From Bacteroidales bacterium (GTDB lineage Bacteria; Bacteroidota; Bacteroidia; Bacteroidales; UBA4417): a DNA stretch of 64,000 bases. Shown in pieces: positions 12,331-64,000 of the stretch. The notes beneath the pieces are model-generated. The model saw only the letters and a list, made by a program, of their open reading frames with translations, was not told the DNA's origin and did no database searches. The stretch spans positions 8,918-72,917 of the forward strand of contig JADJHD010000020.1 of assembly GCA_016707705.1 (NCBI GenBank), in the 5' to 3' direction. A program made the position numbers and the translations under genes. Each line of letters opens with the position of its first letter. Within the stretch, counting starts at the first letter, position 1.

Positions 12331-12357
12331 AGCAGCCCCTAAAGGCTGCTTTTTTTG
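12331..12357 (+). terminator. Rho-independent terminator
   Basis: AGCAGCC / GGCTGCT stem followed by T7. Confidence 0.7.
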
Positions 12358-12416
12358 TTTAATCATACTAATCCCTGCATTTAATTGTTATAATTTTGAA
12401 GTATCAAAGGCTCGTC

Positions 12417-14048: not shown

Positions 14049-14065
14049 AAAACCTTACTGTATTC

Positions 14066-39211: not shown

Positions 39212-39252
39212 TGTTTTCTTTTTATTTATTGACTTGATTAAAAAGTATAAAC

Positions 39253-40869: not shown

Positions 40870-40875
40870 AAGCCT

Positions 40876-48289: not shown

Positions 48290-48664
48290 ATGGATATTTC
48301 CGAATTATTTGAAGATGGCCGGAGCCACAAGAAACATTATTCCAAAAAGTCTGATTACAGATATCATCAAAAGGATAATCACTTCACACCAGAACACCAT
48401 CATGAACATTATGATGACAACTACAGTCGACCTCATAATAAACATGGCTTTTCAGGTCACAGGAGCAATGACTTTTTGATGCGAGTTGCTCAGCATCTGA
48501 AAGCTAATCCCAGGCTTAGGTTGCTGATTATTGTAATCTGCCTCATCCTGGCAATTCTTATCATCGGACTAATAGTAATGATACTGCCCGCAATACTCTC
48601 TTTCCTTGAGCGATTGCTTTCAGGGGATTTGGTTAAGTCTTTTCAAAATCTTCTAAAAGACTAA
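48290..48664 (+). CDS. His-rich small membrane protein (putative metal-binding)
   Basis: The N-terminal 60 aa are rich in His, Lys and Asp (HKKHYSKK..YHQKDNHFTPEHHHEHYDD..HNKHGFSGH). A single C-terminal TM helix follows. It lies directly upstream of the CDF transporter. Confidence 0.55.
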   Translation: MDISELFEDGRSHKKHYSKKSDYRYHQKDNHFTPEHHHEHYDDNYSRPHNKHGFSGHRSNDFLMRVAQHLKANPRLRLLIIVICLILAILIIGLIVMILPAILSFLERLLSGDLVKSFQNLLKD

Positions 48665-48677
48665 TACCCGCTGAAAA

Positions 48678-49535
48678 ATGGAAAAAGAGAAAAAGTCCGT
48701 AGCAGGTTGGTCAGTGGTAGCAGCTGTGTTCCTTACAGGTTTCAAGCTTATTGTCGGGCTATTTACCGGAAGCTTGGGAATCCTGTCGGAAGCATTGCAT
48801 TCCGGCCTTGACCTGGTTGCAGCTGTTATAACCTATTTTTCTGTTAGAATCTCCGATAAACCAGCAGATATAAAACACCCATACGGACATGGAAAGGTTG
48901 AGAATCTTTCTGCCCTGCTCGAAACATTGCTATTGATAATTACATGCTTTTGGATAATCTATGAAGCTGTTGAGCGACTTGCGTCCGGGAAAACACATAT
49001 CGAGGTTAATATCTGGAGTTATATTGTTGTCGTGACATCCATCGTGGTGGACTATACCAGGTCCCGGGCATTGTACAGAACGGCCCGAAAATACAACAGT
49101 CAGGCTCTTGAAGCGGATGCATTGCATTTCTCAACAGATATCTGGAGCTCTTCCGTAGTATTGATAGGCCTGATCTGCGCCAACTTTGGCTACCATATAG
49201 CTGATCCAATTGCAGCACTAGGCGTTGCAGCAATAGTGCTGGTTGTTTCTTTCAAACTGGGAGAAAGAGCAGTAAATGTACTTTTAGATACAAGTCCAGC
49301 TCCGGCGAGGGAAGAAATAGCTGCTTTATTGGACGACACAACAGGAATATTAGCATACAATGACCTTAAAGTCAGGGTATCAGGTGCTGATACATTTGTA
49401 AATGTAACCCTGAAATTTGAACCTTCACTTAGCCTGGAAGCTGCACACAGGCTTTCTGATACTATTGAAGAACAGATTCATCAAAGGATTGAGCGCTGCA
49501 ATGTTCATATCCATTATGAACCAGCATCAAGTTAA
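48678..49535 (+). CDS. Cation diffusion facilitator (CDF) family divalent-metal efflux transporter
   Basis: Six TM helices with CDF motifs (SEALHSGLDL, HFSTDIWSS) and a C-terminal cytoplasmic domain; 285 aa. Confidence 0.8.
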   Translation: MEKEKKSVAGWSVVAAVFLTGFKLIVGLFTGSLGILSEALHSGLDLVAAVITYFSVRISDKPADIKHPYGHGKVENLSALLETLLLIITCFWIIYEAVERLASGKTHIEVNIWSYIVVVTSIVVDYTRSRALYRTARKYNSQALEADALHFSTDIWSSSVVLIGLICANFGYHIADPIAALGVAAIVLVVSFKLGERAVNVLLDTSPAPAREEIAALLDDTTGILAYNDLKVRVSGADTFVNVTLKFEPSLSLEAAHRLSDTIEEQIHQRIERCNVHIHYEPASS

Positions 49536-49562
49536 ATTTTTCGATAACTAAAATTCTGCAAA

Positions 49563-50270
49563 ATGAGAACTTACGTTTGGAGTCTGCCAACCAGAATATT
49601 TCATTGGTTGCTCGTAATTGGAGTTGTACTGGCTTATGTGCTTGGAGAGGAAGAGGAGCTTTTAAATCTGCATTCCTCCATCGGATATGCCCTGGGTATT
49701 TTAATGCTGTTCCGAATTCTTTGGGGTCTTGCAGGACCTTTATATTCAAGATTCCGGGATTTCCCCATCAGCTTGAAAAATCTGATGTTCTTTTTCAAAA
49801 CCTTAGGTAATAGAAAATCCGGGTTCATTGGTCATAATCCGGCAGCCTCACTGATCATGCTGGCAATTATACTGGATGTTTTGTGCATTGTTGGAACGGG
49901 AATAATAATGATGTCATCAAGAGGAGAAGGTCTCTTCGGAAATTTCACCCCGGGATTTGACCCTGAAACCTATAAGGAATTGCATGAAGTATTTGTCAAC
50001 TTCCTGATAATCATAATTATTATGCACCTTTTGGGACTGGCAACCGACTTCTTTTTCCATCCCAAGGACAGAACAATACTTTCAATGTTCAATGGTTATA
50101 AAAATCTTGAAGGACCTAAAGTAAAAGTGAACAGTATCCAATGGATACTTGCAATAATCGGAATAACTGCAGCATTTACAATAATACCCTATTCACTGCT
50201 AAACCAGCAAATCAATCCTGAAAATAACCAATCTGAACAGTCAGAATTTGAAGAAATGGATGAGGATTGA
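49563..50270 (+). CDS. Cytochrome b (b561 / Ni-Fe-hydrogenase b-type subunit family) membrane protein
   Basis: The N-terminus WSLPTRIFHWLLVIGVVLAYVLG is typical of this family. Four TM helices carry conserved His residues. Confidence 0.7.
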   Translation: MRTYVWSLPTRIFHWLLVIGVVLAYVLGEEEELLNLHSSIGYALGILMLFRILWGLAGPLYSRFRDFPISLKNLMFFFKTLGNRKSGFIGHNPAASLIMLAIILDVLCIVGTGIIMMSSRGEGLFGNFTPGFDPETYKELHEVFVNFLIIIIIMHLLGLATDFFFHPKDRTILSMFNGYKNLEGPKVKVNSIQWILAIIGITAAFTIIPYSLLNQQINPENNQSEQSEFEEMDED

Positions 50271-50586: not shown

Positions 50587-51360
50587 ATGAAAACATCAGA
50601 AAAAAACAAGAGTCAAAATAAACGTATTTTACTGATAACCATGAGCCTGGCTTTAGTTATCCTTACATTTTCATGTAGTCATGGAAGTACCGCCTCAATC
50701 AATCTCAAGGAGAAGGGAATATTTCAGGCAACTGTTAGTGAAGTACTGCAATCAAAAGGATACACCTATTTGAAGGTTCAGGAGGAGAAAACGGAGAAAT
50801 GGCTTGTCGTTCCAACTATCAATATCAGCATCGCATCAAAGGTTTATTACAGAGAAGGTTTCAGGATGACAGAGTTTTCAAGCAAGGAGTTGAACAGGTC
50901 TTTCAGTGAGGTATACTTTCTTGAAACGATTGCAACCGATCCTGCACAATTATCAATTGATACTTTGCCTGTTCCCTCTAAATCTGTGCATCAGGAAATG
51001 AATTCGCCTGCAGCACAGGAAGATACTGTTATCAACAATCCGAATCAGGTTCCAATTTCTGACGGCAACAAGATTACTATTGAAAGTATATACAGAAATA
51101 AAGAAACTCTAAACGGTAAACTTGTGGTGATAAGTGGTAAAGTGACAAAATTCAATGAACGCATCATGGGAAAAAACTGGATCCATATTCAGGATGGCAG
51201 CAGCTTTGACAAATATAATGACCTCACTGTCACCACCAGGGAAACAGTAAAAGTCGGAGAAACCGTAAAACTCCAGGGGAAGTTGGTGTTAAACCAGGAT
51301 TTCGGATACGGATATTCCTATGAAATACTTCTCGAGGAAGCCATAATAATTACACAATAG
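50587..51360 (+). CDS. Lipoprotein with two OB-fold-like halves; paralogue of 38480..39211
   Basis: Lipobox ...LTFSC. Both halves align with 38480..39211, for example ISGKVTKFNERIMGKNWIHIQDGS...QGKLVLNQDFGYGY. Confidence 0.55.
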   Translation: MKTSEKNKSQNKRILLITMSLALVILTFSCSHGSTASINLKEKGIFQATVSEVLQSKGYTYLKVQEEKTEKWLVVPTINISIASKVYYREGFRMTEFSSKELNRSFSEVYFLETIATDPAQLSIDTLPVPSKSVHQEMNSPAAQEDTVINNPNQVPISDGNKITIESIYRNKETLNGKLVVISGKVTKFNERIMGKNWIHIQDGSSFDKYNDLTVTTRETVKVGETVKLQGKLVLNQDFGYGYSYEILLEEAIIITQ

Positions 51361-51409: not shown

Positions 51410-52015
51410 ATGAGCAAACTATTAGGAATACTATCAGTAGCTGGCTTTTGTCTATTGATAGCAACACTTACTTCCTGTCAGGACAATAGTTCAGGTAAGA
51501 AGAACGATGTTGCAGATAATCAAAACGTTAAACAGCTTTCAACTCTTTCAGTCGAAAATCCCGAAGAAATGGAAAAAGCATTGGTTAATGACTCTCTTAA
51601 TACAGAAATAAGGTTAAGGCTAGCAGCCCATTACTATTCGGCCCAAGACCTGAATAAAGCATTATACCATAATTTAACCGTCAACAGGATTTCTCCCGAC
51701 AATATGGCTGCCACTTTTAACCTGGGCAATATTTATTATGATTTGAATCAGAATGAACCGGCTATCCGATTCTATGAGAAATTCCTGACTGTTGAGAAGA
51801 CCAATTGCAACGTTCGCTGCGATCTGGCAACCTGCTATATGAGATTAAACAAGCTGGATAAGGCAGAGAAATTGTTAAAGGAAAATACTTCAATTGATTT
51901 CAATCATCCCCAGTCACATTATAACCTGTCAATGGTACTAAAGCAGATGGGAAAAACTGCAGAAGCTGAAAAGGAAATGAAAATTTATCAGGATATGAGT
52001 TCGAAAAGCAATTGA
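51410..52015 (+). CDS. TPR-repeat lipoprotein
   Basis: Lipobox LTSC. It carries 3-4 TPR-like units (LGNIYYDLNQNEPAIRFYEKFL, LATCYMRLNKLDKAEKLL, NLSMVLKQMGKTAEAEKE). Confidence 0.7.
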   Translation: MSKLLGILSVAGFCLLIATLTSCQDNSSGKKNDVADNQNVKQLSTLSVENPEEMEKALVNDSLNTEIRLRLAAHYYSAQDLNKALYHNLTVNRISPDNMAATFNLGNIYYDLNQNEPAIRFYEKFLTVEKTNCNVRCDLATCYMRLNKLDKAEKLLKENTSIDFNHPQSHYNLSMVLKQMGKTAEAEKEMKIYQDMSSKSN

Positions 52016-52414
52016 TAAGCATCCTGAAATTGATGAGAACAGCCGACTCTCAGAAGCTGTAATAGGAATATAATTTAATCGGAACCATGTCTGCAAAGTA
52101 CCAAGGCCCTTCCGGACATTCTAACATCAAACCAAACCCATCGAACAAAGGGCTATGTTTCTGGCTCAGAGGTTCCTTAATGGGTTAGCTTATTGATGAA
52201 TCATGAAAACTGGTAAACTGCCTTTAAACTGTATCCCAACGATAATTATCCCTCCCTGTTGATCCCTTCAAAGTTCAAGAATGAAATAAACCTGCAATTC
52301 TGCCTGCCAGATAGCATTGGATTCAGCAGTACAACTGCTGCCAAATGGGATTTCACAATAAAACATGAATTATTATTATATTTATCTCGCTAATTGACAA
52401 ACACTTAACCTTTC

Positions 52415-52429
52415 TGGCGATTGATTTGA
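52415..52429 (+). promoter_or_regulatory. Sigma-54-like -24/-12 element TGGC-N7-TTGA upstream of the NHL / 12-haem genes
   Basis: TGGCGATTGATTTGA has correct -24/-12 spacing. It overlaps the listed TTG start at 52426, which argues for the ATG at 52516. Confidence 0.35.
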
Positions 52430-52515
52430 TAAATCGTAGCATGAAATTTGCACAATACCCTGAGCACTATAAAAAACTCATTACTACAAGTGTTTACTGC
52501 CCAACCTCAGAATAC

Positions 52516-53538
52516 ATGATCAAGTCATTGAAAATCATACTGGTAATAGCATTTGTTCTGGGTCTCCAGACACAGTATAGTTTGGCTCAAATAACTGACG
52601 AGCCGCCATTAAATGACTCAATTACTAAGGTTGATATAAAATGGACAGGCACCTGGCCTCCTGAAGACCAACCTGCCAAAGCCAGAAGCCTGAGAAACAG
52701 CTTCAATTCAATTGTGCTGGGAATGCAAACCCCAGAATTGGTAAACCCTGTAGCTATTCTGGCCAATAGTCCGGATGATTATCTGATTCTTGACCAGGCT
52801 AACCGAACAATTTTTCAGATCTCAGGAAAATTGGGTGATATCCCCCAATTTATGAAAAAGAACACCTATGATCTTGCCTCCCTGGTTGGCATTTGCTCAG
52901 GACCTAATTCCAGCGTACTATTCACTGACTCATATTCGGGACAGGTTTTTATAAAAAAGTCAGGTCACAAGCGGCCGGAACTGCTTAATGATTCACTAAA
53001 GTTGCAGCAACCTACAGGGATAGCTTATTTAGAGCAAGAGCATCAGATCTGGGTACTTGAAACCAAGGAGCATTCCATAGCAATACTTGATGAAAGTGGA
53101 AACAGAATTGGGAAAATTGGAAAAAGAGGAAATGCCAAAGGTGAATTTAACTTTCCAACACATATCTGGGCAGATGCTAAAGGCTTGGTTTACATAACCG
53201 ATGCCATGAATTTCAGGGTACAGGTTTTCAATTCGAATGGTGAAGTAGTTTCTGTATTCGGACAGGTTGGAGATGCTTCAGGATTTATGGCAAGGCCTAA
53301 GGGAATAGCAACTGATTCACATGGAAACATTTATGTAGTGGATGCTTTATTCCATACTGTTCAGGTATTTGACCTGAATGGAAGATTGCTCATCAGTTTT
53401 GGAAATCAGGGTCATGGGAACGCTGAGTTCTGGATGCCTACCGGAATTTTTATTGACAAACAGGACCATATTTTTGTCGCAGACACCTATAATTCAAGAG
53501 TACAGATTTTTCAAATAACTCACGAAGACAGAAAATGA
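52516..53538 (+). CDS. NHL-repeat beta-propeller protein (secreted)
   Basis: Signal peptide MIKSLKIILVIAFVLGLQTQYSLAQ. It carries NHL units (GEFNFPTHIWADAKGLVYITDAMNFRVQVF, ARPKGIATDSHGNIYVVDALFHTVQVF, WMPTGIFIDKQDHIFVADTYNSRVQIF). Confidence 0.8.
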   Translation: MIKSLKIILVIAFVLGLQTQYSLAQITDEPPLNDSITKVDIKWTGTWPPEDQPAKARSLRNSFNSIVLGMQTPELVNPVAILANSPDDYLILDQANRTIFQISGKLGDIPQFMKKNTYDLASLVGICSGPNSSVLFTDSYSGQVFIKKSGHKRPELLNDSLKLQQPTGIAYLEQEHQIWVLETKEHSIAILDESGNRIGKIGKRGNAKGEFNFPTHIWADAKGLVYITDAMNFRVQVFNSNGEVVSVFGQVGDASGFMARPKGIATDSHGNIYVVDALFHTVQVFDLNGRLLISFGNQGHGNAEFWMPTGIFIDKQDHIFVADTYNSRVQIFQITHEDRK

Positions 53539-55208
53539 AAAAACTCGAACTGCTAATTATACTGACCATCATAGGCGCTTTATCAACTCAGGCGCAATCT
53601 GTTGTTAACACCAAGCACAACCTTTCCATAAGTGGACCCGGATCTGTTAAGGCAATTTCAGAGGATGAAATCTGTGTGTTTTGCCATACTCCTCATAACA
53701 GCCGTCCTGTTGCTCCACTTTGGAACAGGAATGATCCTGGTACCACCTACACTTTATATGCGAGTTCCACCTTACAGGCTTTGCCCGGACAACCTGATGG
53801 CTCCTCCATTCTGTGTCTTTCATGCCATGACGGCACAGTTGCTCTCGGCAGCGTCATAAGCAGACCTTCCACCATACCTATGAATGGTGGAAATTTTATG
53901 CCTGCCGGTGTAGGAAATCTGGGAAACAACCTTAAAAACGACCACCCCATATCATTCAGTTACACATCCGCCCTGGCTGCAGCTGACGGACAGCTAAAAA
54001 CTCCTGCCAGCATTACACCTCCTGTGAATCTCAGGAATGGCAAGGTCCAATGTACTTCCTGCCATGAACCTCATAAAAACCTGTACTCTGATTTTCTGCT
54101 GGCCAGTACACAAAACTCCAACCTCTGCAATAGTTGCCATCAAAGAACCTACTGGACAACCAGTTCGCATAATACTTCTGTAAAAACATGGAATGGAACC
54201 GCACCGGATCCATGGCCCTATTCACCCTGGACAACAGTAGCTGAAAATGGTTGTGAGAATTGTCATAATCCTCATAATTCAAACAGCACCAAATTGTTGT
54301 TGAAATACTCCACTGAAGAAAACAATTGCCTCGATTGTCACAATGGAAATGCATCTACAAAAAACATTGCGGCTCAGTTTGCCAAGGCATATAAGCACAA
54401 TATTACCAGTTATAATGGTATTCATGACGCCAATGAAGCCGCACAGATAACAAATATGCATTCGGAATGTGTTGATTGCCATAATCCTCATGCAGCAAGA
54501 AACCAGGCTGCAACAGCACCTGCCGTCAACGGATTCCTGCTGGGGGTTAAGGGAATCAATCAGAGTGGCACAGCTGTTAACCCGGCAACCAACTCCTATG
54601 AAATCTGCTACCGCTGCCATGCAGGTAGTGCAGGTGCACCTGCAGCTTCAACCCCAAGGGTCATTGTTCAAAACAATGTCAGGCTTGAATTTGCACCAGG
54701 CAACCCCTCCTATCATTCAGTTGCTGCTGTTGGCGTGAACACTACCGTTCCCAGTCTTATTGCACCCTGGACAACCAGCAGCAGGATGTATTGTACTGAC
54801 TGCCATGCAAGTGATGGCACTGGCTCACCAGCCGGCCCTCATGGCTCCATCTACCCGCATATCCTGAAAAGGCAGAACAATACAACTGATAACACCGCGG
54901 AATCCGCTGCAGCTTATGCCTTATGCTATGGATGTCATAATCGCACCTCCATTCTTGGAGATATATCTTTCAAAGAGCATTCCAAGCATATTGTGGGCGA
55001 AAGAACACCCTGTATTACCTGCCATGACCCGCATGGAATCAGCAGCACCCAGGGAAACAGTACCAATAACTCAAATCTGATAAACTTTTGGACAACAGTT
55101 GTAACCAACAGTTCCGGCGGAATCCGTAGATTTGATGATCAGGGAAATTTTAAGGGAAGATGCTATCTCACCTGCCATGGAGAGAACCATAATCCGCTGA
55201 GTTACTAA
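53535..55208 (+). CDS. Multihaem c-type cytochrome, 12 sites (11 CxxCH + 1 CxxxCH)
   Basis: Has a signal peptide. The CxxCH(T/N/E/D)PH motif recurs. The N-terminal ~200 aa are paralogous to 58510..59130. Its ATGA start overlaps the NHL gene's stop. Confidence 0.88.
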   Translation: MKKLELLIILTIIGALSTQAQSVVNTKHNLSISGPGSVKAISEDEICVFCHTPHNSRPVAPLWNRNDPGTTYTLYASSTLQALPGQPDGSSILCLSCHDGTVALGSVISRPSTIPMNGGNFMPAGVGNLGNNLKNDHPISFSYTSALAAADGQLKTPASITPPVNLRNGKVQCTSCHEPHKNLYSDFLLASTQNSNLCNSCHQRTYWTTSSHNTSVKTWNGTAPDPWPYSPWTTVAENGCENCHNPHNSNSTKLLLKYSTEENNCLDCHNGNASTKNIAAQFAKAYKHNITSYNGIHDANEAAQITNMHSECVDCHNPHAARNQAATAPAVNGFLLGVKGINQSGTAVNPATNSYEICYRCHAGSAGAPAASTPRVIVQNNVRLEFAPGNPSYHSVAAVGVNTTVPSLIAPWTTSSRMYCTDCHASDGTGSPAGPHGSIYPHILKRQNNTTDNTAESAAAYALCYGCHNRTSILGDISFKEHSKHIVGERTPCITCHDPHGISSTQGNSTNNSNLINFWTTVVTNSSGGIRRFDDQGNFKGRCYLTCHGENHNPLSY

Positions 55209-55235
55209 ACTTGGGTCAAATAAGGAATAATCAGG

Positions 55236-56681
55236 ATGAAGTCCTTTAGTTTCAGGGTTAAGATAATTGGAATGATTGTAATAGTGGTAACGCTGTTTTC
55301 GGTTATCTCATTTACAGTATTCAATTTTTACCTGAAGGACAAACTTATCACCCATACAGAGGAGACTTACAATCACATGAATCTCCTTCGTGATCAGTAT
55401 TACTTTACAATCAGCCAGCATGATGGTAAGGTTATCCGGTCCATGCTTAAAAATCTGGAACAGGATCCTGATGTACTCAGAACTTTCCTTATTAATAGCA
55501 AACGGAAACTTGTCTATCCCAAAAACCATAAGACTCCGGGTATTGATTCAGCAAATGTTGAACAGTACTTCAGCAGCCGGAAAGATATATCCATTGTCTC
55601 ATTCAGCAAGGAAAATCCTCCTTATTCCAGAGTTTTCATCCGACTGCAGAACATTGAGTCATGTCAGGAGTGCCATAACCCTTCGACCAAAGCACTTGGT
55701 TTGATTGTCATGGATCTTTCAAACCATGAAACTCAAAGCATAGTAAACCTGACCAAAAATTTCAGCATTTTCTATACCATTGCCATTCTGCTGGCCATCT
55801 TTACAATGGTAGCCTATCTTCACTTTAAGTATATCCGGAAAAGCATGCAGCAATTCCGGGCTGCCATTAGACGAATAAACAAAGGCGATCTGGAAAAACG
55901 TCTTGATATACCTGAAGTAAGGGAACTGGGAAGTCTGGGAAGGGATTTCAATGAAATGATGGCGACATTTGAAAGAACACAGTACCAGCTTCGGGAGTAT
56001 CATGAAAAGGAGCTTCAGAATACGCAGAAACTAGCTACAATAGGTGAAATGTCGGCAAGAATTGCTCACGAAATCAGAAATCCGGTCACCGGAATTGCCA
56101 GAGCAATGGAGGTCATTATAACTGAAATGAAGGATTCAGCCAATAAGCCGATTCTTGAAGAAATCCAGCGACAGGCAAATCGGGTCAATCAGGCAATTAC
56201 CAATCTATTGCGTTTCTCCAGGACAAAGGAACTGATACTGGAAAAAGGGAATATTAATGACATCCTGAAGTCTGTAACCTTCTTCCTTCAAAACCAATCA
56301 CTTGAAAAATCAGTGAGATTTGAGCTTCAAACAGATGATCTGCTTCCAAAAGTTTCATTTGATCACGAACAATTAGAGAATGTAATCATGAATTTGATTA
56401 TCAACTCAATACAATCTATTCAGGAGGAGGGAGTTATCATCATAAAATCATCTTTCATCGATAAAAAGAACAAGGTACTGATCTCTATTTCTGATAATGG
56501 CAAAGGGATTCCGGAGGAAGCAGCAGCTGAAATATTCAAGCCATTTTTTACGACGAGAACTAAGGGAACAGGACTGGGACTTGCAATCAGCAAGGATATT
56601 ATTCAGAAGCACGAAGGAGAAATATGGTTTAAAAATAATGAGGATTCAGGCTGTACCTTCTTCTTAACTTTACCTGCCTGA
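55236..56681 (+). CDS. Sensor histidine kinase with a periplasmic domain carrying one CxxCH (putative c-haem sensor), HAMP, HisKA and HATPase
   Basis: Two TM helices flank a ~145-aa loop containing SCQECHNPS. HAMP follows (INKGDLEKRLDIP), then the H-box ARIAHEIRNP and G-boxes DNGKGIP / GTGLGLAI. Confidence 0.85.
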   Translation: MKSFSFRVKIIGMIVIVVTLFSVISFTVFNFYLKDKLITHTEETYNHMNLLRDQYYFTISQHDGKVIRSMLKNLEQDPDVLRTFLINSKRKLVYPKNHKTPGIDSANVEQYFSSRKDISIVSFSKENPPYSRVFIRLQNIESCQECHNPSTKALGLIVMDLSNHETQSIVNLTKNFSIFYTIAILLAIFTMVAYLHFKYIRKSMQQFRAAIRRINKGDLEKRLDIPEVRELGSLGRDFNEMMATFERTQYQLREYHEKELQNTQKLATIGEMSARIAHEIRNPVTGIARAMEVIITEMKDSANKPILEEIQRQANRVNQAITNLLRFSRTKELILEKGNINDILKSVTFFLQNQSLEKSVRFELQTDDLLPKVSFDHEQLENVIMNLIINSIQSIQEEGVIIIKSSFIDKKNKVLISISDNGKGIPEEAAAEIFKPFFTTRTKGTGLGLAISKDIIQKHEGEIWFKNNEDSGCTFFLTLPA

Positions 56682-56719
56682 AAAAGAGATTGAATTGATT
56701 TAAAAACTGCTTAAGATAG

Positions 56720-58132
56720 ATGAAACAGTTAAAAATCCTGGTAATTGATGATGAGAAGCTGATTCGCTGGTCACTCGAAAAACATTTGAGTGCAAAGGGA
56801 TACCAGGCAATTGGAGCGGAATCAGGTGAAGAAGGAATTAAAATATTTGAGCAGAATCATCCTGAAATAGTTCTGGTGGATAATAAATTACCTGGAATTC
56901 AAGGACTTGAAGTAATAAAAAAAATCAAGTCCCTTGATGAAGAGGCTGTTATAGTATTCATGACAGCATATGGTTCCATTGAGACAGCAGTAGAAGCAAT
57001 GAAATCAGGAGCTACTGAATATATCAACAAGCCCTTTGCCTTTGAGGAGGTTGAAGTCATCCTTGATAACATCAAGAACAAGCTAAAGATAATCAAGGAA
57101 ATACAAGTTCTAAAGAGACAACAAAAAGACATAGTAACCTTTGATCACATTATTGGAGAATCAGTTCAGTTTAAGCAAATTGTACACTTAGCCCGAAAAA
57201 TTGCCCGGACTAAAACAACAACGATACTTCTTTTAGGTGAAAGTGGAACCGGAAAGGATATGTTTGCCCATGCTATTCACAATGACAGCACCAGACATGA
57301 TAAGCCATTCATAACAATAAACTGTTCTTCATTACCGGAAACTCTCCTTGAAAGCGAACTGTTCGGACATGAAAAAGGAGCTTTTACAGATGCAAAGCAA
57401 ATGAAAAAGGGATTGTTTGAACTTGCTGAAGGAGGGACTGTATTTCTGGATGAAATTGGTGAAATAAATGCTGCAACACAGATAAAATTGCTTGGTGTGC
57501 TGGAAAACAGGGTAGTAAGACGAATAGGAGGCACCCAGAGTATTCCTGTGGATATACGAATCATCGCCGCAACCAACCGGGATCTGAAAAGAGCAATTGA
57601 TGATAAGTCCTTCAGAGAGGATCTCTATTACAGGCTAAAAGTCTTCCAGATTATCCTGCCACCTCTTCGTGAGAGACGTGATGATATTCCATTAATAGCA
57701 AACCATTTCATTACCCATTACAATAGCCAGTTCCAGAAGAATGTGAGCCATCTGAATGAAGGTGTCCGGGCTATGTTTCTTGAGTATAACTGGCCAGGAA
57801 ACATAAGAGAACTCCGGAACGTAATTGAAAGGGCTGTGATTTTGGAAACTATGACTAGCTTACAACCAGATAACCTTCCAAATGAGATGATTGGAAAAAT
57901 CGAGCAAGCCGATAATTCATCAAAAGAAAATTACACCCAAGGCAACATAGGAACTTCAGGATCAATTGTTGAATTTAATATTCCAAATGAAGGTTTTTCA
58001 TTATATGAAATTGAAAAACAACTCATTATTCATGCTTTGAAAAAATCTGACAATAACCAGACACGGACTTCAAAGATGCTGGGAATTTCAAGAGACACAT
58101 TACGATATAAAATGAAAAAATATAAACTTTAA
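56720..58132 (+). CDS. Sigma-54-dependent response regulator (NtrC family enhancer-binding protein)
   Basis: Receiver domain (VLVDNKLPG), AAA+ domain with GESGTGKD, the GAFTDA variant of GAFTGA, and ESELFGHEKG. A C-terminal Fis-type HTH is present (QTRTSKMLGISRDTLRYKMKKY). Confidence 0.9.
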   Translation: MKQLKILVIDDEKLIRWSLEKHLSAKGYQAIGAESGEEGIKIFEQNHPEIVLVDNKLPGIQGLEVIKKIKSLDEEAVIVFMTAYGSIETAVEAMKSGATEYINKPFAFEEVEVILDNIKNKLKIIKEIQVLKRQQKDIVTFDHIIGESVQFKQIVHLARKIARTKTTTILLLGESGTGKDMFAHAIHNDSTRHDKPFITINCSSLPETLLESELFGHEKGAFTDAKQMKKGLFELAEGGTVFLDEIGEINAATQIKLLGVLENRVVRRIGGTQSIPVDIRIIAATNRDLKRAIDDKSFREDLYYRLKVFQIILPPLRERRDDIPLIANHFITHYNSQFQKNVSHLNEGVRAMFLEYNWPGNIRELRNVIERAVILETMTSLQPDNLPNEMIGKIEQADNSSKENYTQGNIGTSGSIVEFNIPNEGFSLYEIEKQLIIHALKKSDNNQTRTSKMLGISRDTLRYKMKKYKL

Positions 58133-58448
58133 ACACCCTGGGTTATTTCACCCACAATCAATTGGGTCATATAGCCCAGTCTTTATCCATTTTTTTAAGG
58201 GAATCTGCAGAATAATCTTCAAACAGGGTCCAATAACTTTATAAAAGCAATTGCGAATAACCTCTGAAACACCTATTGGCAAAAGAAAAATGCTGAAACG
58301 CCTTTTTCTGCTTTCAAATTCTATTCAAGTCAAAGGTCAAATGCAGCTTTAAAGGCAACAGTCAAAAAACAGCTAATTTTATTTGAACGCTACATACAAT
58401 GTACGTATATAAACCATAAGAACTTAATTGTTAATCACATACATTTTG

Positions 58449-58463
58449 TGGCATATAATTTGA
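58449..58463 (+). promoter_or_regulatory. Sigma-54-like -24/-12 element TGGCAT-N5-TTGA upstream of the tetrahaem gene
   Basis: TGGCATATAATTTGA has correct spacing and lies 47 nt upstream of the ATG at 58510. It sits directly downstream of the sigma-54 activator gene. Confidence 0.4.
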
Positions 58464-58509
58464 AAACAGCAGGCAACAACGCTAGTATCTCTCCTAAAAA
58501 CCTCACACA

Positions 58510-59130
58510 ATGAAAAAAATTAATTGCCTCTTACTCGTTATTGCTTTCGCAACTCTGTCACAATTTGGGTTTGCACAGATTGCAGGAACAGGACATGACT
58601 TTTCAGGTCAGAGCTGGAACACTACAACTGAAATCTGCATTGTTTGCCACACTCCGCACAATGCTGACAATACAGTTGCAAATGCTCCCCTTTGGAATCA
58701 CAGCCTTTCAAATGTTGCTGCCTACTCAATTTATTCAGGTGCAACAATGAATGCAACTGTTGGTCAACCTGATGGAAGTTCAAAACTCTGTCTCAGCTGC
58801 CATGACGGAACTGTAGCTCTTGAAAACTTTGGTGGTGTTACCACCGGAACCAACCCCATGACTGGTAATGCCAATATGGGAACCGATTTAAGCAATGACC
58901 ATCCTGTTTCATTTACCTATGATGCAGCTTTGGCTTCAACTGATGGTGGATTGTTCAATCCAACCACTACTCAGTCAGGTTTGGGTGGAACCATCACAAA
59001 CACCATGCTTATCTCTGGCAAGATGCAATGTTCATCATGCCATGATGTGCACAATAGCGCCAATATCAACGGCCTGCTGCTGAAATCAAACTCAGCCAGC
59101 GCACTTTGCCTTACCTGCCATAACAAGTAA
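58510..59130 (+). CDS. Small secreted tetrahaem c-type cytochrome
   Basis: Has a signal peptide and 4 CxxCH motifs (CIVCHTPHN, CLSCHDG, CSSCHDVHN, CLTCHNK-stop); 206 aa. Confidence 0.88.
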   Translation: MKKINCLLLVIAFATLSQFGFAQIAGTGHDFSGQSWNTTTEICIVCHTPHNADNTVANAPLWNHSLSNVAAYSIYSGATMNATVGQPDGSSKLCLSCHDGTVALENFGGVTTGTNPMTGNANMGTDLSNDHPVSFTYDAALASTDGGLFNPTTTQSGLGGTITNTMLISGKMQCSSCHDVHNSANINGLLLKSNSASALCLTCHNK

Positions 59131-59152
59131 GCTAAGCTTTAAAAAAATCTTT

Positions 59153-59182
59153 AAAAGGGCGAAGTTTCCTTCGCCCTTTTTT
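59153..59182 (+). terminator. Strong rho-independent terminator after the tetrahaem gene
   Basis: GGGCGAAG-TTTC-CTTCGCCC stem-loop flanked by AAAA and TTTTTT. Confidence 0.85.
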
Positions 59183-59254
59183 ACGATGACAATACCTGGT
59201 CATCATTCAATCGGAATGCTCATTGTTTAGGTTCCGCTCCAATCCAAGGAAAAC

Positions 59255-60376
59255 ATGCTCAGAATACTGATCCCTGCTTTAATTGCTGCCATTTTTCTTC
59301 AATCCTGCGCCAAAAAAGTCATTACGGGGCAGGATAGTTTAGTTATTTATCCTTCCCCTCCCGACACTGCAAGGATTCAATTCCTGACCAGGATCAGCAG
59401 CTCTCATGATGTTACAGGTGACCGGAATCCATTTTCTAGGTTAATTCTTGGAGAGGATGAGGATATCGCCATCAATAAACCATATGGTGTTGCAGTGTCT
59501 GGCGATAAGATCTTTATCTGTGATACTTTCATTCATGGACTGGACGTAATTGACATGAAGGATAATTCCTTCGAACAATTCATTCCAACAGGAAAGGGTG
59601 AACTAAAGCAACCTATCAATTGTACAGTGGATAGTCTGGGAAATGTTTACGTAGCAGACTCAGAACGCAAGCAGGTAGTTATTTTTGACAATGAAGGCAA
59701 TTATACTGGAAGCTTCGGAGACCCTGAATCCTTTAAACCTGTTGACGTTGCCGTTAAATATGGCAAAATATGGGTTACCAATCTGGCACAGCATCAGGTA
59801 ATGGTCTTCAGTTGTGATTCTTCACATGAATTACTGTCGGTTTGGCCGGAATTTGATAAATCAAACCCTTCCAGCCTGTTCTCCCCAACAAACCTGTATA
59901 TTTCTGACAACAAGGTTTATGTCACTGACTTTGGGGACTTCAAGATTAAGGAATATACCCTTGACGGTGAATTTATTACTTCATTAGGTACTTACGGACA
60001 AAATCCGGGGCAGTTCGTTCGTCCAAAGGGACTCGCAGTTGATAAGGATGAAAATCTGTACGTAGTTGATGCCGGATTTGAGAATGTTCAGATATTCAAT
60101 CCGGATGGAAAACTACTGATGTTCTTCGGAGGTAATTATAAAGGCCCCGGTGATATGTGGCTTCCGGCAAAAGTGACTGTTGATTACAATCATACTGCCT
60201 ATTTTGAAAAATATGTGGATCCATCCTACCATCTGAAGTATGTTATCCTTGTTTCAAATCAATTCGGCCCCGATAAGTTAAATATCTATGGAGCGATTGA
60301 ACCGGTTCGTCCCGGCCAAAAAGGTGGTTTGAGGAATCTTGAAAAAAAAGGTAAAAGAAAGCCTCCTATGTTCTGA
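59255..60376 (+). CDS. NHL-repeat / six-bladed beta-propeller lipoprotein
   Basis: Lipobox FLQSC. It carries NHL-like units (PYGVAVSGDKIFICD, GNVYVADSERKQVVIFDNEG, RPKGLAVDKDENLYVVDAGFENVQIFNPDG). Confidence 0.75.
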   Translation: MLRILIPALIAAIFLQSCAKKVITGQDSLVIYPSPPDTARIQFLTRISSSHDVTGDRNPFSRLILGEDEDIAINKPYGVAVSGDKIFICDTFIHGLDVIDMKDNSFEQFIPTGKGELKQPINCTVDSLGNVYVADSERKQVVIFDNEGNYTGSFGDPESFKPVDVAVKYGKIWVTNLAQHQVMVFSCDSSHELLSVWPEFDKSNPSSLFSPTNLYISDNKVYVTDFGDFKIKEYTLDGEFITSLGTYGQNPGQFVRPKGLAVDKDENLYVVDAGFENVQIFNPDGKLLMFFGGNYKGPGDMWLPAKVTVDYNHTAYFEKYVDPSYHLKYVILVSNQFGPDKLNIYGAIEPVRPGQKGGLRNLEKKGKRKPPMF

Positions 60377-60412
60377 TTACAGTCTCTGCCATAAAACTCA
60401 CAATACACTACA

Positions 60413-61000
60413 ATGACCTGTAACAACTATTTCCATCACAAACAACTGCACAGATTCCTTTTGATTCTGATGGCCGGGATAATTGTGTTTGGAGTTACAG
60501 CATGTTCTTCATCCTATAAACATAAAGTATTATCATTCTTTTTCGATGGGGTGCCTGAAGTTTCAAGCTCTGAAACTCCTGTAGCTGCATCCGAAACAAA
60601 AGTAGATTCCTCAATTATTGCAACTCCATCCCTTGCAGCAGTAGCAATGAATGTACACCCTCCGTATCAGGATAAACAATGCCATTCATGCCATGATCCC
60701 GGGAAAATGGGCAAACTGATTATAGCCCAGCCGATGGTTTGCTATGCATGCCATGATGACTTCTCAAAAAAATACAAAAACACTCACGGTCCTGTTGAAG
60801 GCGGACAATGTACCATGTGCCATCAGCCACATCAGTCAGGGAATGAGCATCTCCTCACCCGCAAGGGTTCACTTGTTTGCCAGTATTGTCATGAATCTGA
60901 TGACCTGAGTACTATCAGTGAACATCAGGATCCTGAGAATTCTTCCTGTATGACCTGCCATGACCCACATGGAGGCGATAATCCTTATTTTATCAAATAA
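60413..61000 (+). CDS. Pentahaem c-type cytochrome lipoprotein
   Basis: Lipobox GVTAC, a Ser/Thr/Ala-rich linker and 5 CxxCH motifs; 195 aa. Confidence 0.85.
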   Translation: MTCNNYFHHKQLHRFLLILMAGIIVFGVTACSSSYKHKVLSFFFDGVPEVSSSETPVAASETKVDSSIIATPSLAAVAMNVHPPYQDKQCHSCHDPGKMGKLIIAQPMVCYACHDDFSKKYKNTHGPVEGGQCTMCHQPHQSGNEHLLTRKGSLVCQYCHESDDLSTISEHQDPENSSCMTCHDPHGGDNPYFIK

Positions 61001-61002
61001 CC

Positions 61003-62988
61003 ATGAACAGGGCATTCCGACATATAATCGTATTGTTGGCCTTGTGCATTTCCGGCCTGCATGCTTCTGCATATTATGGCAAGTATGGTAAGTCGAAGCA
61101 GAAGCAGTTCTATTTCTGTAAGCTTGACTATCTTACCGGAGAAGTGCGATTCTCGAGTCTCTATCGGGAACAGGAAAGAATTGGTATCAGTATAAATGAA
61201 CACCAGAACAGTAAGTATTTTTCAGGAGGGCTGGTAATCCGATCGAGCAGTTCGATAATCCATAAAAACTTTCTGGTGCTGGACCTTGATGCAGCCTACC
61301 TGCCTGAATCCAATAAGGACAACTTTTTAGTCATACCAGACCAGTCAGAGGTTCGATCAACTAAAAAGCTTGACCTCACAGCATCCTTCTTCAAGGAAAA
61401 AGACTTCAACCTTAGTTTATTCGGCAACTACGATGAAAGCTATTCCACCCGCGAAAACCTGACCAATATACGCACCAATAACCAGCACCTGGGGGCATCA
61501 ATGGGTTATAACAACCTTTTTGTTCCGTTCAGGCTTGATGTTCATCAGCGTTTCTGGAATGAAGAAGAAATTGGTGGAAGCCGATCATACAAATTTGACC
61601 AGTTCTCAGTCGGCGCCACTTTTAACAAATCCTTCAGGCAGTCCGACCGTTCCGAACTAAGACTCAACCACGACAGGAATATCAGCATCAATCAGTATCA
61701 ATTCAGAATTGCCAATACTTTGAATACTCTGGATTTCCACAACTCCATACACCTCGACAAGGGCCAGAGATACAATCTTATAACAAGTGTCAATGGAATC
61801 GATCAATTCGGGAATCTTAACATGCGCAGGATTCAAGCCATGGAATTGTTGAATTTCAAGCTGTCAGAAAATCTGAATTTCCTCACAAATTACACATTCC
61901 AGTCTACACGTCAGGATTCAGCAAGGCTAAAGCAGAATGGTTTCAGTACAACCCTTCAGCATACACTCTTCAGCAGTCTGCGTACTTCAATTCATTTCGA
62001 CTATGACAGATTGAAACATACCGCTTTCAGGGAAGTAAACAGAAAAACCGGAATCGAATTGAACTATACCAAGAAAATTCCCGGAGGCCATCTTAACATT
62101 GTATACAAACTTGATACCTACAGGCAGGATCACACATCCGGTTCGATTGATCTTAGAACTCTTGGTGAAGAATACACCCTCTCAGATAACCGGATTACAT
62201 TGTTGAAACTTCCTTATATTATTCTTAGTTCTGTTGTTGTCAGGGATATTTCCGGAACATTAATTTATGAAGCCGGACTTGATTATATGCTCATCCAGCA
62301 AAATACCTTTATCGAAATCAGGCGAATTCCGGGCGGTGCTATTCCGAATGAGGGAATTGTTCTGGTGGATTACACTGCTACCCGACCCGGAGATTACAGG
62401 TATGATGCAATTACCAATGCAGTTAATGTAAACCTGTATCTGTTTAAAAACCATCTGTCAGTCTATTACAGGTTCTCGAATCAGGATTACTTCGGACTTC
62501 ATACCACTGATTTTGTGACCCTGAATTACTTTACACAGAACATGGCCGGACTTAGGCTTGATTTAGGTGTTGTAAGTTTGGGAGCGGAGCATGAAGACTA
62601 TCAAAGCTCAATTCTCCCCTACCGCATGACACGTTATTATGTAAACTATCAGCAAAACCTTGGTGAACGGCTAATATTGCTCCTGAATGGAAATTTGCAG
62701 GATTATGTAATGCTAAATGATGACGAATCAAGAAATCAACGATATATTGATGTATCCGGCAAGGTATCCTACAATGTTTTCCGCCAGACCAATCTGAATA
62801 TGGATATTATGTACAGGAACCAATCCGGAAGGGGAATTGACCTTGACTTGTTTACTGGCCGCGCCGAGGTAACCTCTACTATAAACAGGCTATACCTTGC
62901 GGGTGGTGTGGAAGTTTACAGACGAAATTACATTGGTGAAAAAATCAATTTCAAGGGAGCCTATATCAAGCTTATCCGTAAATTCTGA
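61003..62988 (+). CDS. Predicted outer-membrane beta-barrel protein (porin-like partner)
   Basis: Has a signal peptide, pervasive amphipathic beta-strand patterns and no Cys-haem motifs. The C-terminus ...YIKLIRKF ends in Phe. It is separated from both flanking cytochrome genes by 2 nt. Confidence 0.65.
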   Translation: MNRAFRHIIVLLALCISGLHASAYYGKYGKSKQKQFYFCKLDYLTGEVRFSSLYREQERIGISINEHQNSKYFSGGLVIRSSSSIIHKNFLVLDLDAAYLPESNKDNFLVIPDQSEVRSTKKLDLTASFFKEKDFNLSLFGNYDESYSTRENLTNIRTNNQHLGASMGYNNLFVPFRLDVHQRFWNEEEIGGSRSYKFDQFSVGATFNKSFRQSDRSELRLNHDRNISINQYQFRIANTLNTLDFHNSIHLDKGQRYNLITSVNGIDQFGNLNMRRIQAMELLNFKLSENLNFLTNYTFQSTRQDSARLKQNGFSTTLQHTLFSSLRTSIHFDYDRLKHTAFREVNRKTGIELNYTKKIPGGHLNIVYKLDTYRQDHTSGSIDLRTLGEEYTLSDNRITLLKLPYIILSSVVVRDISGTLIYEAGLDYMLIQQNTFIEIRRIPGGAIPNEGIVLVDYTATRPGDYRYDAITNAVNVNLYLFKNHLSVYYRFSNQDYFGLHTTDFVTLNYFTQNMAGLRLDLGVVSLGAEHEDYQSSILPYRMTRYYVNYQQNLGERLILLLNGNLQDYVMLNDDESRNQRYIDVSGKVSYNVFRQTNLNMDIMYRNQSGRGIDLDLFTGRAEVTSTINRLYLAGGVEVYRRNYIGEKINFKGAYIKLIRKF

Positions 62989-62990
62989 CC

Positions 62991-63908
62991 ATGAACAACT
63001 CTTCATTTCTATATATCCTCCTGCCTTTCCTTTCTCTTCTGATGTTTTGGGAAAGCAGCAGGCTGCCTGAAAATGAATCTGGCAGAAATCCGATCAGCGC
63101 ACCCACCCAGTGCATAGATTGCCACAGTGATCTGATTGAAAGCCCCAATCAGCATAAACCTGCCGCTGAATCCTGTGGAAAATGCCACACCGTTGACTTT
63201 GTAGCTCACACCGAAAATGGTGCAAGAGGTCTTAATCTGAATTTTGAAATGCCTTTTCTTTGCCTTAATTGTCATGAGGATACCAAACAGAGCATCGAAA
63301 CAGTAAAGACACCTCACCTTGCTCTAAATACTGAAAAGAAATGTGCCAACTGCCATTCCCCCCATTCATCCGATCAAAAAGCCCTTCTGGTCTCTGAAGA
63401 GAAAAAACTATGCCTTTCCTGCCACAACAAAGATGTCACACTCGAAGGCAAACCTGCCGTAAACATCAAGAAACTGTTGTCAGTCAGCAAGGTAGTTCAC
63501 CCACCTGTTGAAAAAGGATGCAAGGTATGTCATCAGCCTCATGGTTCCGATAATAATTACCTGCTGATCAGTGCTTTTCCACGGACAAAATATCTGCCTG
63601 CTGTTCAGGACTCCTTTGCCTTTTGCTGGGAATGCCACGACAGCGATCTGCTCTCACTAGAAAAGACAACCACCTCCACTAATTTCAGGGATGGAGACCG
63701 CAACCTGCATTTTGTGCATATGAATGGAAAAAGGTCAAGATCATGCATAATGTGCCATAACGTACATGCAGCTCCCAATGAACATCTTATTGAGGATAAG
63801 GTTAAGTACGGCAAATGGGAACTGCCGATTAAATACACTGCAAATGAAAAGGGTGGTTCATGTTTCCCTGGATGCCATTCAGCAAAGCAATACAGCAGAC
63901 CTGAATGA
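62991..63908 (+). CDS. Multihaem c-type cytochrome, 9 sites (8 CxxCH + 1 CxxxCH)
   Basis: Hydrophobic N-terminus. Motifs are CIDCH, CGKCH, CLNCH, CANCH, CLSCH, CKVCH, CWECH, CIMCH and CFPGCH; 305 aa. Confidence 0.88.
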   Translation: MNNSSFLYILLPFLSLLMFWESSRLPENESGRNPISAPTQCIDCHSDLIESPNQHKPAAESCGKCHTVDFVAHTENGARGLNLNFEMPFLCLNCHEDTKQSIETVKTPHLALNTEKKCANCHSPHSSDQKALLVSEEKKLCLSCHNKDVTLEGKPAVNIKKLLSVSKVVHPPVEKGCKVCHQPHGSDNNYLLISAFPRTKYLPAVQDSFAFCWECHDSDLLSLEKTTTSTNFRDGDRNLHFVHMNGKRSRSCIMCHNVHAAPNEHLIEDKVKYGKWELPIKYTANEKGGSCFPGCHSAKQYSRPE

Positions 63909-64000
63909 AATTGAATCATTTTATAATTGAACAAGGCTTTTATAATCCTGTTTTATTTTAACTCGTTAACCCAGAATGTAGAACAAAATGCTGATTCCCG

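Follow-up and report, generated by a model that had tools for sequence, protein, structure and literature searches.

An OmcE/Uet-family multihaem cytochrome cluster, probably of the nanowire type, in a Bacteroidales genome

We describe a cluster of ten genes on the plus strand of a 64,000-nucleotide stretch of DNA from a Bacteroidales bacterium (contig JADJHD010000020.1 of assembly GCA_016707705.1, positions 8,918 to 72,917). The whole stretch is referred to as the window, and coordinates are those of the window unless another locus is named. The cluster spans positions 51410 to 63908 and is probably an extracellular electron-transfer locus of the OmcE/Uet family and of the nanowire type. All ten open reading frames (ORFs) that an earlier note had listed from the letters of the DNA are present in the ORF list at the coordinates it gave, with only one start codon to be changed, and its total of 30 haem sites agrees with the motifs counted in the four cytochromes (12 + 4 + 5 + 9), to which a sensor kinase adds one further CXXCH. 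Pfam finds Paired_CXXCH_1 in the four cytochromes (E values from 5e-12 to 3.5e-32) and confirms the remaining domains, namely the tetratricopeptide repeat (TPR), two NHL propellers, HAMP/HisKA/HATPase_c, and REC with Sigma54_activat and HTH_8; lipoboxes are read in the TPR protein, in the second NHL protein and in the 5-haem protein. The nearest homologues of all cluster proteins belong to Bacteroidales, Lentimicrobiaceae and Bacteroidota metagenome-assembled genomes (MAGs), and genes for a SusC/SusD pair and for proteins bearing type IX secretion system (T9SS) sorting domains are likewise present in the window, all of which bear out the earlier placement in a genome of the Fibrobacterota-Chlorobiota-Bacteroidota group. 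None of the cluster cytochromes carries a T9SS sorting domain, though other window proteins do, and this speaks for the OmcE/Uet assignment.

The assignment begins with two proteins that contain OmcE-homologous sequence. The tetrahaem protein encoded at 58510 to 59130 (206 residues, Sec signal peptide, four CXXCH motifs), the predicted filament subunit, is matched over its full length by the Geobacter sulfurreducens OmcE filament (7tfs; E = 4.7e-27, query residues 10–206 on chain residues 12–232) and by the Desulfuromonas soudanensis OmcE bundle (9yuq; E = 3.7e-26); these are the only two solved OmcE filament subunits, and both are filaments. The 12-haem cytochrome encoded at 53535 to 55208 (557 residues, 11 CXXCH and one CX3CH, the latter with cysteines and histidine invariant across 49 homologues) matches the same structures with its residues 2–204 (7tfs E = 7e-39, 9yuq E = 6e-26, and E = 6e-44 when used as a profile), and the remaining sequence finds only a weak match to Thermincola OcwA (6i5b, E = 0.002). 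In an alignment of both window modules with the Geobacter and Desulfuromonas OmcE proteins and five homologues, four CXXCH motifs and four distal histidines are invariant and in register, which implies bis-histidine ligation of four haems. By these sequence criteria, we classify the 206-residue protein as a full-length homologue of OmcE filament subunits and the 12-haem protein as an N-terminal OmcE module (residues 1–204, four haems) followed by an 8-haem extension, in the manner of UetJ; the earlier note had recognised neither relationship. The OmcE homology of both proteins, with all haem ligands kept, is a first argument for an OmcE/Uet-family cluster. More than 7800 relatives of the OmcE-like protein are present in the databases; its identity is 64–98% to Bacteroidota-type proteins and ~28–40% to those of Geobacter and Desulfuromonas. 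Full-length homologues of the 12-haem protein (44–49% identity) occur in Acidobacteriota, Betaproteobacteria, a Desulfobulbaceae MAG and a "delta proteobacterium" MAG, where they adjoin NHL1-type, OmcE-like, NHL2-type and barrel genes; more distant or split versions are found in a Myxococcota MAG (36%) and in Nitrospirae MAGs, and the identity to the 11-haem proteins of Gallionellaceae and gammaproteobacterial Uet-like loci is 30–35%. Petersen et al. (bioRxiv 10.1101/2025.10.22.684050) looked through OmcE operons of Desulfuromonadia and found none that encodes an OmcE-like protein with additional exposed haems.

To place the cluster among its relatives, we used a genome scan with G. sulfurreducens OmcE as query, which returned 80 loci (these and further related loci are designated by L numbers below); the synteny set consists of seven other Bacteroidota-type loci, among them those of a Lentimicrobiaceae MAG, of a Lutibacter sp. 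(L085) and of a "Chlorobi bacterium". The order OmcE-like protein, NHL protein, small cytochrome, barrel of ~650 residues and cytochrome is kept in all seven, with barrel identities of 24–55%, and each also has a pair of genes for an NHL protein and a cytochrome of ~540–560 residues nearby. This conserved order is a second argument for the OmcE/Uet assignment, and the five genes that follow it in the window (58510–63908) are taken to be transcribed together. Genes for cytochrome maturation (ResB/CcsA or ccm) abut several of the related loci. In two loci, the last cytochrome gene is followed by a five-haem OmcE paralogue that is 47–49% identical to the window OmcE-like protein (L085 13099–13785 and L087 10210–10878); five-haem OmcE proteins have been put forward as a possible new, "leaky" nanowire family (Petersen et al.). 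The Lutibacter cluster lacks the kinase and activator and lies directly after genes for an NrfD/4Fe-4S complex resembling alternative complex III and for two monohaem cytochromes c (L085 1–3980), neighbours that hint at an inner-membrane entry of electrons.

The window furthermore matches the minimal omcE cluster as defined by Petersen et al., which comprises OmcE, two multihaem cytochromes, two beta-propeller lipoproteins and a large barrel, and this match likewise favours the OmcE/Uet reading. Its full set consists of the OmcE-like protein, the 5- and 9-haem cytochromes, the propellers NHL1 and NHL2 (with a lipobox on NHL2 only) and a 661-residue barrel, and beyond this set there is a UetI/UetJ-like pair of an NHL protein and an OmcE fusion. 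NHL1, a secreted propeller of the six-bladed type (340 residues; Pfam NHL E = 1e-24, DUF5128), is encoded at 52516 to 53538; the ATG at 52516 is almost certainly its start in place of the listed TTG at 52426, as judged from the signal peptide that this start yields, from the length of the orthologues (337–343 residues) and from a conserved intergenic element at 52437–52452 that falls inside the longer ORF. An NHL1-type gene lies directly 5' of the 12-haem homologue in eight loci (L026, L046, L056, L081, L082, L085, L086 and L088), and an NHL1-type match adjoins it in L077. In the distant, GC-rich genome of L084, where the cluster abuts ccm genes, the two are fused into one ORF of 864 residues (12352–14946), which suggests that the NHL1 and 12-haem proteins act together; the recurrence of this pairing across phyla, and its fusion, add to the case for the OmcE/Uet family. 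NHL2, a propeller lipoprotein (59255–60376, 373 residues, lipobox LQSC; Pfam NHL E = 3e-17), is encoded directly 3' of the OmcE-like gene, as in L046, L065, L081, L082 and L084–L088; in the Geobacter (L001) and Acidobacteriota (L026) loci, an NHL lipoprotein gene is instead found directly upstream of the OmcE gene. The window propellers are 22–30% identical to the Geobacter propeller (E = 1e-21 to 2e-30).

The genes for the 5- and 9-haem cytochromes flank the barrel gene. The pentahaem lipoprotein (60413–61000, 195 residues, lipobox VTAC followed by a linker of roughly 55 residues; Paired_CXXCH_1 E = 2e-22) has weak MtrA similarity (6r2q_A, E = 9e-9), shares only generic haem-repeat likeness with the Geobacter cluster, and is represented in the related loci by positional orthologues with 5–9 haems; it is predicted to be an electron relay on the periplasmic side. 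The 9-haem cytochrome (62991–63908, 305 residues, 8 CXXCH and one CX3CH) is weakly similar to MtrA (PDB E = 1.5e-5) and shares 39% identity (E = 5e-50), over residues 41–303, with the cytochrome that is encoded first in the Geobacter omcE cluster (L001 6457–7467); a periplasmic or in-barrel conduit is the predicted role. The homology of the 9-haem and NHL proteins to Geobacter cluster proteins again points to the OmcE/Uet family. The 661-residue protein between them (61003–62988, signal peptide) has no Pfam or NCBIfam match, and its profile has none among PDB sequences. AlphaFold2 models it as a plug-less barrel of ~28–30 strands with a mean predicted local distance difference test (pLDDT) score of 90.1, laid out as 18 strands, a conserved insert of ~57 residues (394–450) and ~12 further strands. 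The family counts 2452 metagenome representatives at E ≤ 1e-3, all named members come from Bacteroidota-type genomes, and a family-specific hidden Markov model (HMM) detects the same gene in every related locus as well as in L046 and L065, a betaproteobacterial and another Pseudomonadota locus. The barrel candidate of the earlier note is thus a cluster-specific large barrel and not a generic porin, and the confident fold, together with a family tied to these clusters, supports the OmcE/Uet reading.

The earlier proposal that this is a regulated module for extracellular electron transfer is supported as well. Between the 12-haem and OmcE-like genes lie a sensor histidine kinase (55236–56681) with two transmembrane segments, a periplasmic CXXCH (C143) and a HAMP-HisKA-HATPase arrangement (Pfam), and an NtrC/AtoC-type sigma-54 activator (56720–58132) with REC, AAA+ and HTH_8 domains (Pfam Sigma54_activat E = 6e-69; NCBIfam AtoC/NtrC-like E = 2e-138) and the Walker A motif GESGTGK. 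A REC, sigma-54 AAA+ and helix-turn-helix activator thus adjoins a HisKA kinase, as in NtrB/NtrC-type systems. The CXXCH of the sensor kinase is kept by its counterparts in L082, L042 and L056, which are clusters from Bacteroidota, Desulfuromonadales and a "delta proteobacterium" MAG, and a single CXXCH is likewise present in the kinase of L087, which is 45% identical.

Shortly past the 3' end of the activator gene, at 58139–58178, are the two palindromes TGGGTTATTTCACCCA and TGGGTCATATAGCCCA, which lie 24 bp apart centre to centre, are the two best matches to the motif in the window (1 and 2 mismatches), and are predicted to form a candidate upstream activating sequence, or enhancer, for the activator. 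Two weaker matches (2–3 mismatches) fall within the NHL1 gene, and the window as a whole has eight on both strands where 1.9 are expected by chance. Comparable palindromes lie between the activator and OmcE-like genes as pairs in L081, L082 and L086, and as one scored and one degenerate copy in L087; none are found in L084, L085 and L088, all of which are without an adjacent activator. A sigma-54 −24/−12 promoter of the form TGGCAT-N5-TTGAA is located at 58449–58464, 46–61 bp upstream of the OmcE-like ATG, and the same element occupies the same position in L081 (TGGCATGTATTTTGCT), L082, L086, L087 and L084 (TGGCACGGGCGTTGCT) and is absent from L085 and L088. Both promoter and sites are therefore present in 5/5 activator-bearing loci, and of the three loci lacking an adjacent activator, L084 has the promoter only and L085 and L088 have neither element. 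A scan of the whole window with the sigma-54 consensus is unenriched (66 matches, 57 expected), such that the promoter is singled out by comparison with orthologous loci alone. A further element, TAGCATGAAATTTGCA (52437–52452, plus strand, 64–79 bp upstream of the NHL1 ATG), recurs as an identical 16-mer in the spacer between the TPR and NHL1 genes of L081; with a canonical −12 element (TTGCA) and AG in place of GG at −24, it is a putative conserved sigma-54-like element. The co-occurrence of promoter and activator sites with the regulator, and the conservation of the kinase CXXCH across phyla, are additional arguments for the OmcE/Uet reading.

Several observations weigh against an OmcE/Uet-family nanowire cluster controlled in this way. 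On the regulatory side, the sigma-54 contact loop of the activator (residues 220–225) reads GAFTDA and not GAFTGA, a substitution kept in five of five orthologues; the −12 element is TTGA in the window as compared with the canonical TTGC in L081, L082 and L084; and rpoN is not encoded within the 64-kb window. On the structural side, Foldseek retrieves from the PDB only generic large barrels (TonB receptors, LptD, MtrB, FimD and SlpA; template modeling scores of 0.2–0.4, with LptD, MtrB and FimD at 0.3–0.4), matches that could not discriminate function, and the AlphaFold2 model of the 12-haem protein, made from a 49-sequence alignment, is unusable (pLDDT 38.8). No relationship between the window barrel and the Geobacter omcE barrel is found by BLASTP, by hhalign (probability 6.6%) or by reciprocal HMMs, and by these comparisons the former is not an orthologue of the latter. 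Such filaments are not known experimentally from any Bacteroidota, and even for Geobacter it is disputed how much OmcE filaments matter to the physiology of the cell. Lastly, a ninth histidine (His64, in PLWNH) is conserved in Bacteroidota OmcE-like proteins, the 206-residue protein included; arginine (PLWNR) stands at this position both in the OmcE proteins of Geobacter and Desulfuromonas and in the module fused into the 12-haem protein. In OmcE filaments, the monomer has eight histidines for four haems and leaves one haem short of a ligand, which a histidine of the neighbouring subunit completes; an OmcE-like protein with nine histidines for four haems could instead be a self-satisfied stopper and not a polymeriser (Petersen et al.).

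The ninth histidine also bears on a rather unlikely alternative, a non-polymeric porin-cytochrome conduit of the kind described by the Mtr, Pcc and original Uet models, in which the barrel would house a wire made of the 5-, 9- or 12-haem protein and the OmcE-like protein would be a monomeric cytochrome of the surface or periplasm, with all four haems satisfied by its own histidines. The MtrA-like repeats of the 5- and 9-haem proteins and the presence of MtrB among the structural matches of the barrel fit such a conduit, and the authors of the Uet work modelled UetJ and UetA as extracellular monomers for which polymerisation was merely possible. Yet both solved members of the OmcE family are filaments, the eight canonical ligands and the length of the module are retained, and the propeller and barrel context is the very criterion by which nanowire-competent OmcE homologues have been picked (Petersen et al.). 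In addition, NCBIfam scores for the DmsE-family, OmcA/MtrC and GSU2203 models are far below their cut-offs; TIGR03508 (MtrA/DmsE) reaches only 50–66 bits where its cut-off is 192, and no significant match to TIGR03507 is found. On this evidence, we retain the nanowire-type OmcE/Uet cluster as the preferred interpretation.

If so, the cluster might work as follows. The kinase would sense the periplasmic redox state through its c-haem and phosphorylate the activator, which would bind the two palindromic sites and fire the sigma-54 promoter of the OmcE-like operon. Sec-exported, haem-loaded subunits would be held in the periplasm by their cognate NHL propellers and then be passed through, or mounted on, the barrel in chaperone-usher fashion; a porin-mounted assembly model is favoured for omcE clusters by Petersen et al. 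Outside the cell, OmcE-like subunits would polymerise by inter-subunit His-haem ligation, with the 5- and 9-haem proteins bringing periplasmic electrons to the base of the filament. The 12-haem protein could use its OmcE module to attach to the filament as the terminal subunit at base or tip, its eight extra haems reaching the barrel lumen or a substrate. More speculatively, and with odds that we put on the low side, the 12-haem protein would be a dedicated terminal subunit, each OmcE-module protein would have its own NHL chaperone, the ~30-strand barrel would be the usher, and the omcE and uet clusters would be reduced versions of one ancestral nanowire machine that is abundant in Bacteroidota. 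Were this true, the eight extra haems would form either a base inside the barrel or a reactive tip, and the cluster may reveal how nanowires start, anchor or cap.

The direction of electron flow is likely outward, to Fe(III) or Mn(IV) minerals, humics, conductive particles or partner cells, a preference that follows from the anaerobic, organotrophic lineage and from the reported enrichment of Lentimicrobium on conductive particles. We regard as distinctly unlikely that the same hardware runs inward and takes up electrons from Fe(II) minerals, cathodes or partner cells, as proposed for Uet in "Ca. Tenderia" and Gallionella. Uptake would suit the UetI/UetJ-like pair of NHL protein and OmcE fusion, the occurrence of homologous clusters in Gallionellaceae, Rhodocyclales and Sedimenticola-type genomes, and the position of the L085 cluster next to its quinone-interacting NrfD/4Fe-4S complex and monohaem cytochromes c. 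However, the uet-specific trihaem c7, cupredoxin and peptidyl-prolyl isomerase (PPIase) proteins are absent from the ten ORFs, the 9-haem protein groups with cytochromes of the Geobacter omcE cluster, and Lentimicrobiaceae, the closest relatives with a description, are regarded as anaerobic fermenters or candidate syntrophic acetate oxidisers and as donors to conductive particles; multihaem chains are moreover reversible, so that sequence cannot decide direction.

The earlier note had also suggested acquisition from Desulfuromonadia-like donors, and this is not supported as a recent event. The comparison of base composition and codon usage that it had called for reveals no difference between the cluster and the rest of the window: GC at third codon positions is 0.405 in the cluster and 0.397 in the rest, overall GC also matches, and relative synonymous codon usage correlates at 0.94 between cluster and rest, the value for the two halves of the rest against each other being 0.92. 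The borders of the cluster are free of mobile-element genes. Outside Bacteroidota, the OmcE-like, 12-haem and barrel proteins have their nearest versions in Pseudomonadota and Acidobacteriota MAGs, and for the 9-haem protein alone is the best foreign match found in Geobacter clusters. A recently transferred Desulfuromonadia island, to which the 9-haem matches and the literature on horizontally moving electron-transfer modules might point, is thus very improbable, given a composition and codon usage indistinguishable from the surroundings, flanks without mobile elements, a barrel unrelated to that of Geobacter, and closer, syntenic homologues of every component in many Bacteroidota genomes. The mosaic of foreign affinities and the deep, Bacteroidota-wide families imply that any transfer is old and did not come specifically from Desulfuromonadia.

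At its 5' end, the cluster begins with a TPR lipoprotein (51410–52015, 201 residues, lipobox LTSC; Pfam TPR_2/TPR_8/TPR_19) that has an orthologue at the same position in L081 only and is absent from L082, L085, L086, L087 and L088; on this distribution, it is classed as an accessory, lineage-specific part. At the 3' end, the stop codon of the 9-haem gene is followed 79 bp later by an ATG at 63988 with which a next gene may begin (window 63988–64000). The suggestion in the earlier note that the cluster runs past the end of the window is therefore plausible, and it probably does continue, as in the closest relatives L081 and L086, where the last cytochrome gene is followed by one for a TPR protein of 988–1145 residues.

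The surroundings of the cluster contain further features of note. A first cytochrome cluster on the minus strand (38480–45344) encodes a 960-residue protein with 36 CXXCH and one CX3CH, a 535-residue protein with 20 haems, a barrel-like protein of 538 residues without a Pfam match and a 243-residue protein. It resembles the "gigantic porin-multiheme cytochrome cluster" reported from a Lentimicrobium MAG, which has 61 + 20 haems and no synteny to known porin-cytochrome clusters (PMC13013709); its 538-residue barrel has no sequence relation to the 661-residue barrel. Paralogous secreted or membrane-anchored proteins of 243 and 257 residues (38480–39211, minus strand; 50587–51360, plus strand; 36% identity, E = 2e-48, no Pfam family) are located one at the edge of each cytochrome cluster. 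Two minus-strand ORFs (45368–45949 and 46012–46701) look like halves of a 4Fe-4S ferredoxin and pyridine-nucleotide-disulfide oxidoreductase, which could reflect a frameshift, a split gene or an assembly error, and are followed at 46706–47575 by a multi-pass membrane protein of 289 residues without a family. Finally, a cation diffusion facilitator (CDF) transporter and a cytochrome b561, preceded by a His-rich 124-residue protein, lie between the two cytochrome clusters (48290–50270); the same CDF and b561 pair is found downstream of the homologous cluster in L082 (17350–19205), which suggests that the association with the cluster may be conserved.

Structures of cytochrome nanowires have come from Geobacter, Desulfuromonas and two archaea, and their secretion and anchoring, and the way in which they start and stop, are recognised questions in the field. 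Petersen et al. list five phyla for OmcE homologues with such neighbours, Bacteroidota not among them, and we found no paper describing an OmcE/Uet-type cluster in Bacteroidota; the set of OmcE-type clusters is here extended to a phylum that the defining paper does not list. The cluster places an OmcE-type system in a phylum usually regarded as fermentative, connects the omcE cluster with the uet cluster by the parts they have in common, and offers two testable proposals, a candidate terminal or adaptor subunit and a pattern of one propeller per subunit. The compact circuit of haem-sensor kinase, sigma-54 activator, mapped candidate sites and promoter could serve to switch the system on in cultures or in a heterologous host, and the cluster bears on the persistence of Lentimicrobium-type bacteria on conductive particles in methanogenic consortia.

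Relative to known systems, the Pcc/Ext clusters and the omcS neighbourhood that the earlier note had used for comparison give way to better matches, the omcE nanowire cluster and the uet cluster. MtrCAB, Pcc and Ext share with the window a large barrel beside periplasmic and lipoprotein multihaem cytochromes and the weakly MtrA-like repeats of the 5- and 9-haem proteins, but the window lacks an MtrB/PioB-family barrel and an MtrC/OmcA decahaem lipoprotein, and its NHL and OmcE modules are foreign to those systems. The osc (OmcS companion) cluster of G. sulfurreducens combines a filament cytochrome with proposed factors for folding (OscH), secretion (OscE/F/G) and morphology (OscD), and large barrels are common in OmcS regions, as in the window cluster; OmcS is, however, a hexahaem protein without sequence similarity to OmcE, and the likeness of osc to the window is by description only. 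The link of NHL, TPR and barrel proteins to the biogenesis of cytochrome filaments agrees with the literature on both the omcE and osc clusters.

The uetABCDEFGHIJ cluster of "Ca. Tenderia electrophaga", found also in Gallionella, encodes tetrahaem UetA, undecahaem UetJ, two NHL proteins and the 28-strand barrel UetC, along with three trihaem proteins, a cupredoxin, a PPIase, ccsAB and a TPR protein. Our comparison was made through Uet-like loci of Gallionellaceae and Gammaproteobacteria, in which 11-haem proteins follow NHL genes (L055, L071, L072, L073 and L079, with four trihaem genes also in L071), and with the Tenderia proteins by description only. Shared with the window are the tetrahaem protein, an 11- or 12-haem cytochrome with "doubled CXXCH" right after an NHL gene, a second NHL protein, a barrel of ~28 strands, a TPR protein and maturation genes, and this common logic of tetrahaem, undecahaem, two NHL proteins and 28-strand barrel in the uet literature is itself an argument for the OmcE/Uet reading. 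Pfam and NCBIfam find no domains of the UetB PPIase, UetD/E/G trihaem c7 or UetF cupredoxin type in the ten ORFs, where 5- and 9-haem MtrA-like proteins appear instead, and the role put forward for uet is the uptake of electrons by aerobic autotrophs; the window host, by contrast, is of an anaerobic Bacteroidales type.

The omcE cluster (GSU0618 region of G. sulfurreducens, DSOUD_2954 of D. soudanensis) has a homologous tetrahaem subunit with the haem ligands kept, the same component set, a homologue of the 9-haem protein and adjoining maturation genes (resB/ccsB in Geobacter, ResB/CcsA in L085 and L086). The homology and synteny with Geobacter that the earlier note had proposed to check hold in part: OmcE, the 9-haem protein and the NHL proteins are homologous, but gene order differs and the barrel, of 661 compared with ~746 residues, is without detectable homology. 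The Geobacter order is resB, ccsB, a cytochrome (9 + 2 haems), a cytochrome (8 haems), an NHL lipoprotein, OmcE, the 746-residue barrel and glycosyltransferases. Compared with it, the window has one lipoprotein propeller of two, is without the glycosylation island, and has the ninth conserved histidine in its subunit. What the window adds to the omcE plan is a 12-haem OmcE fusion with a propeller of its own and, embedded in the cluster, the haem-sensor kinase and sigma-54 activator.

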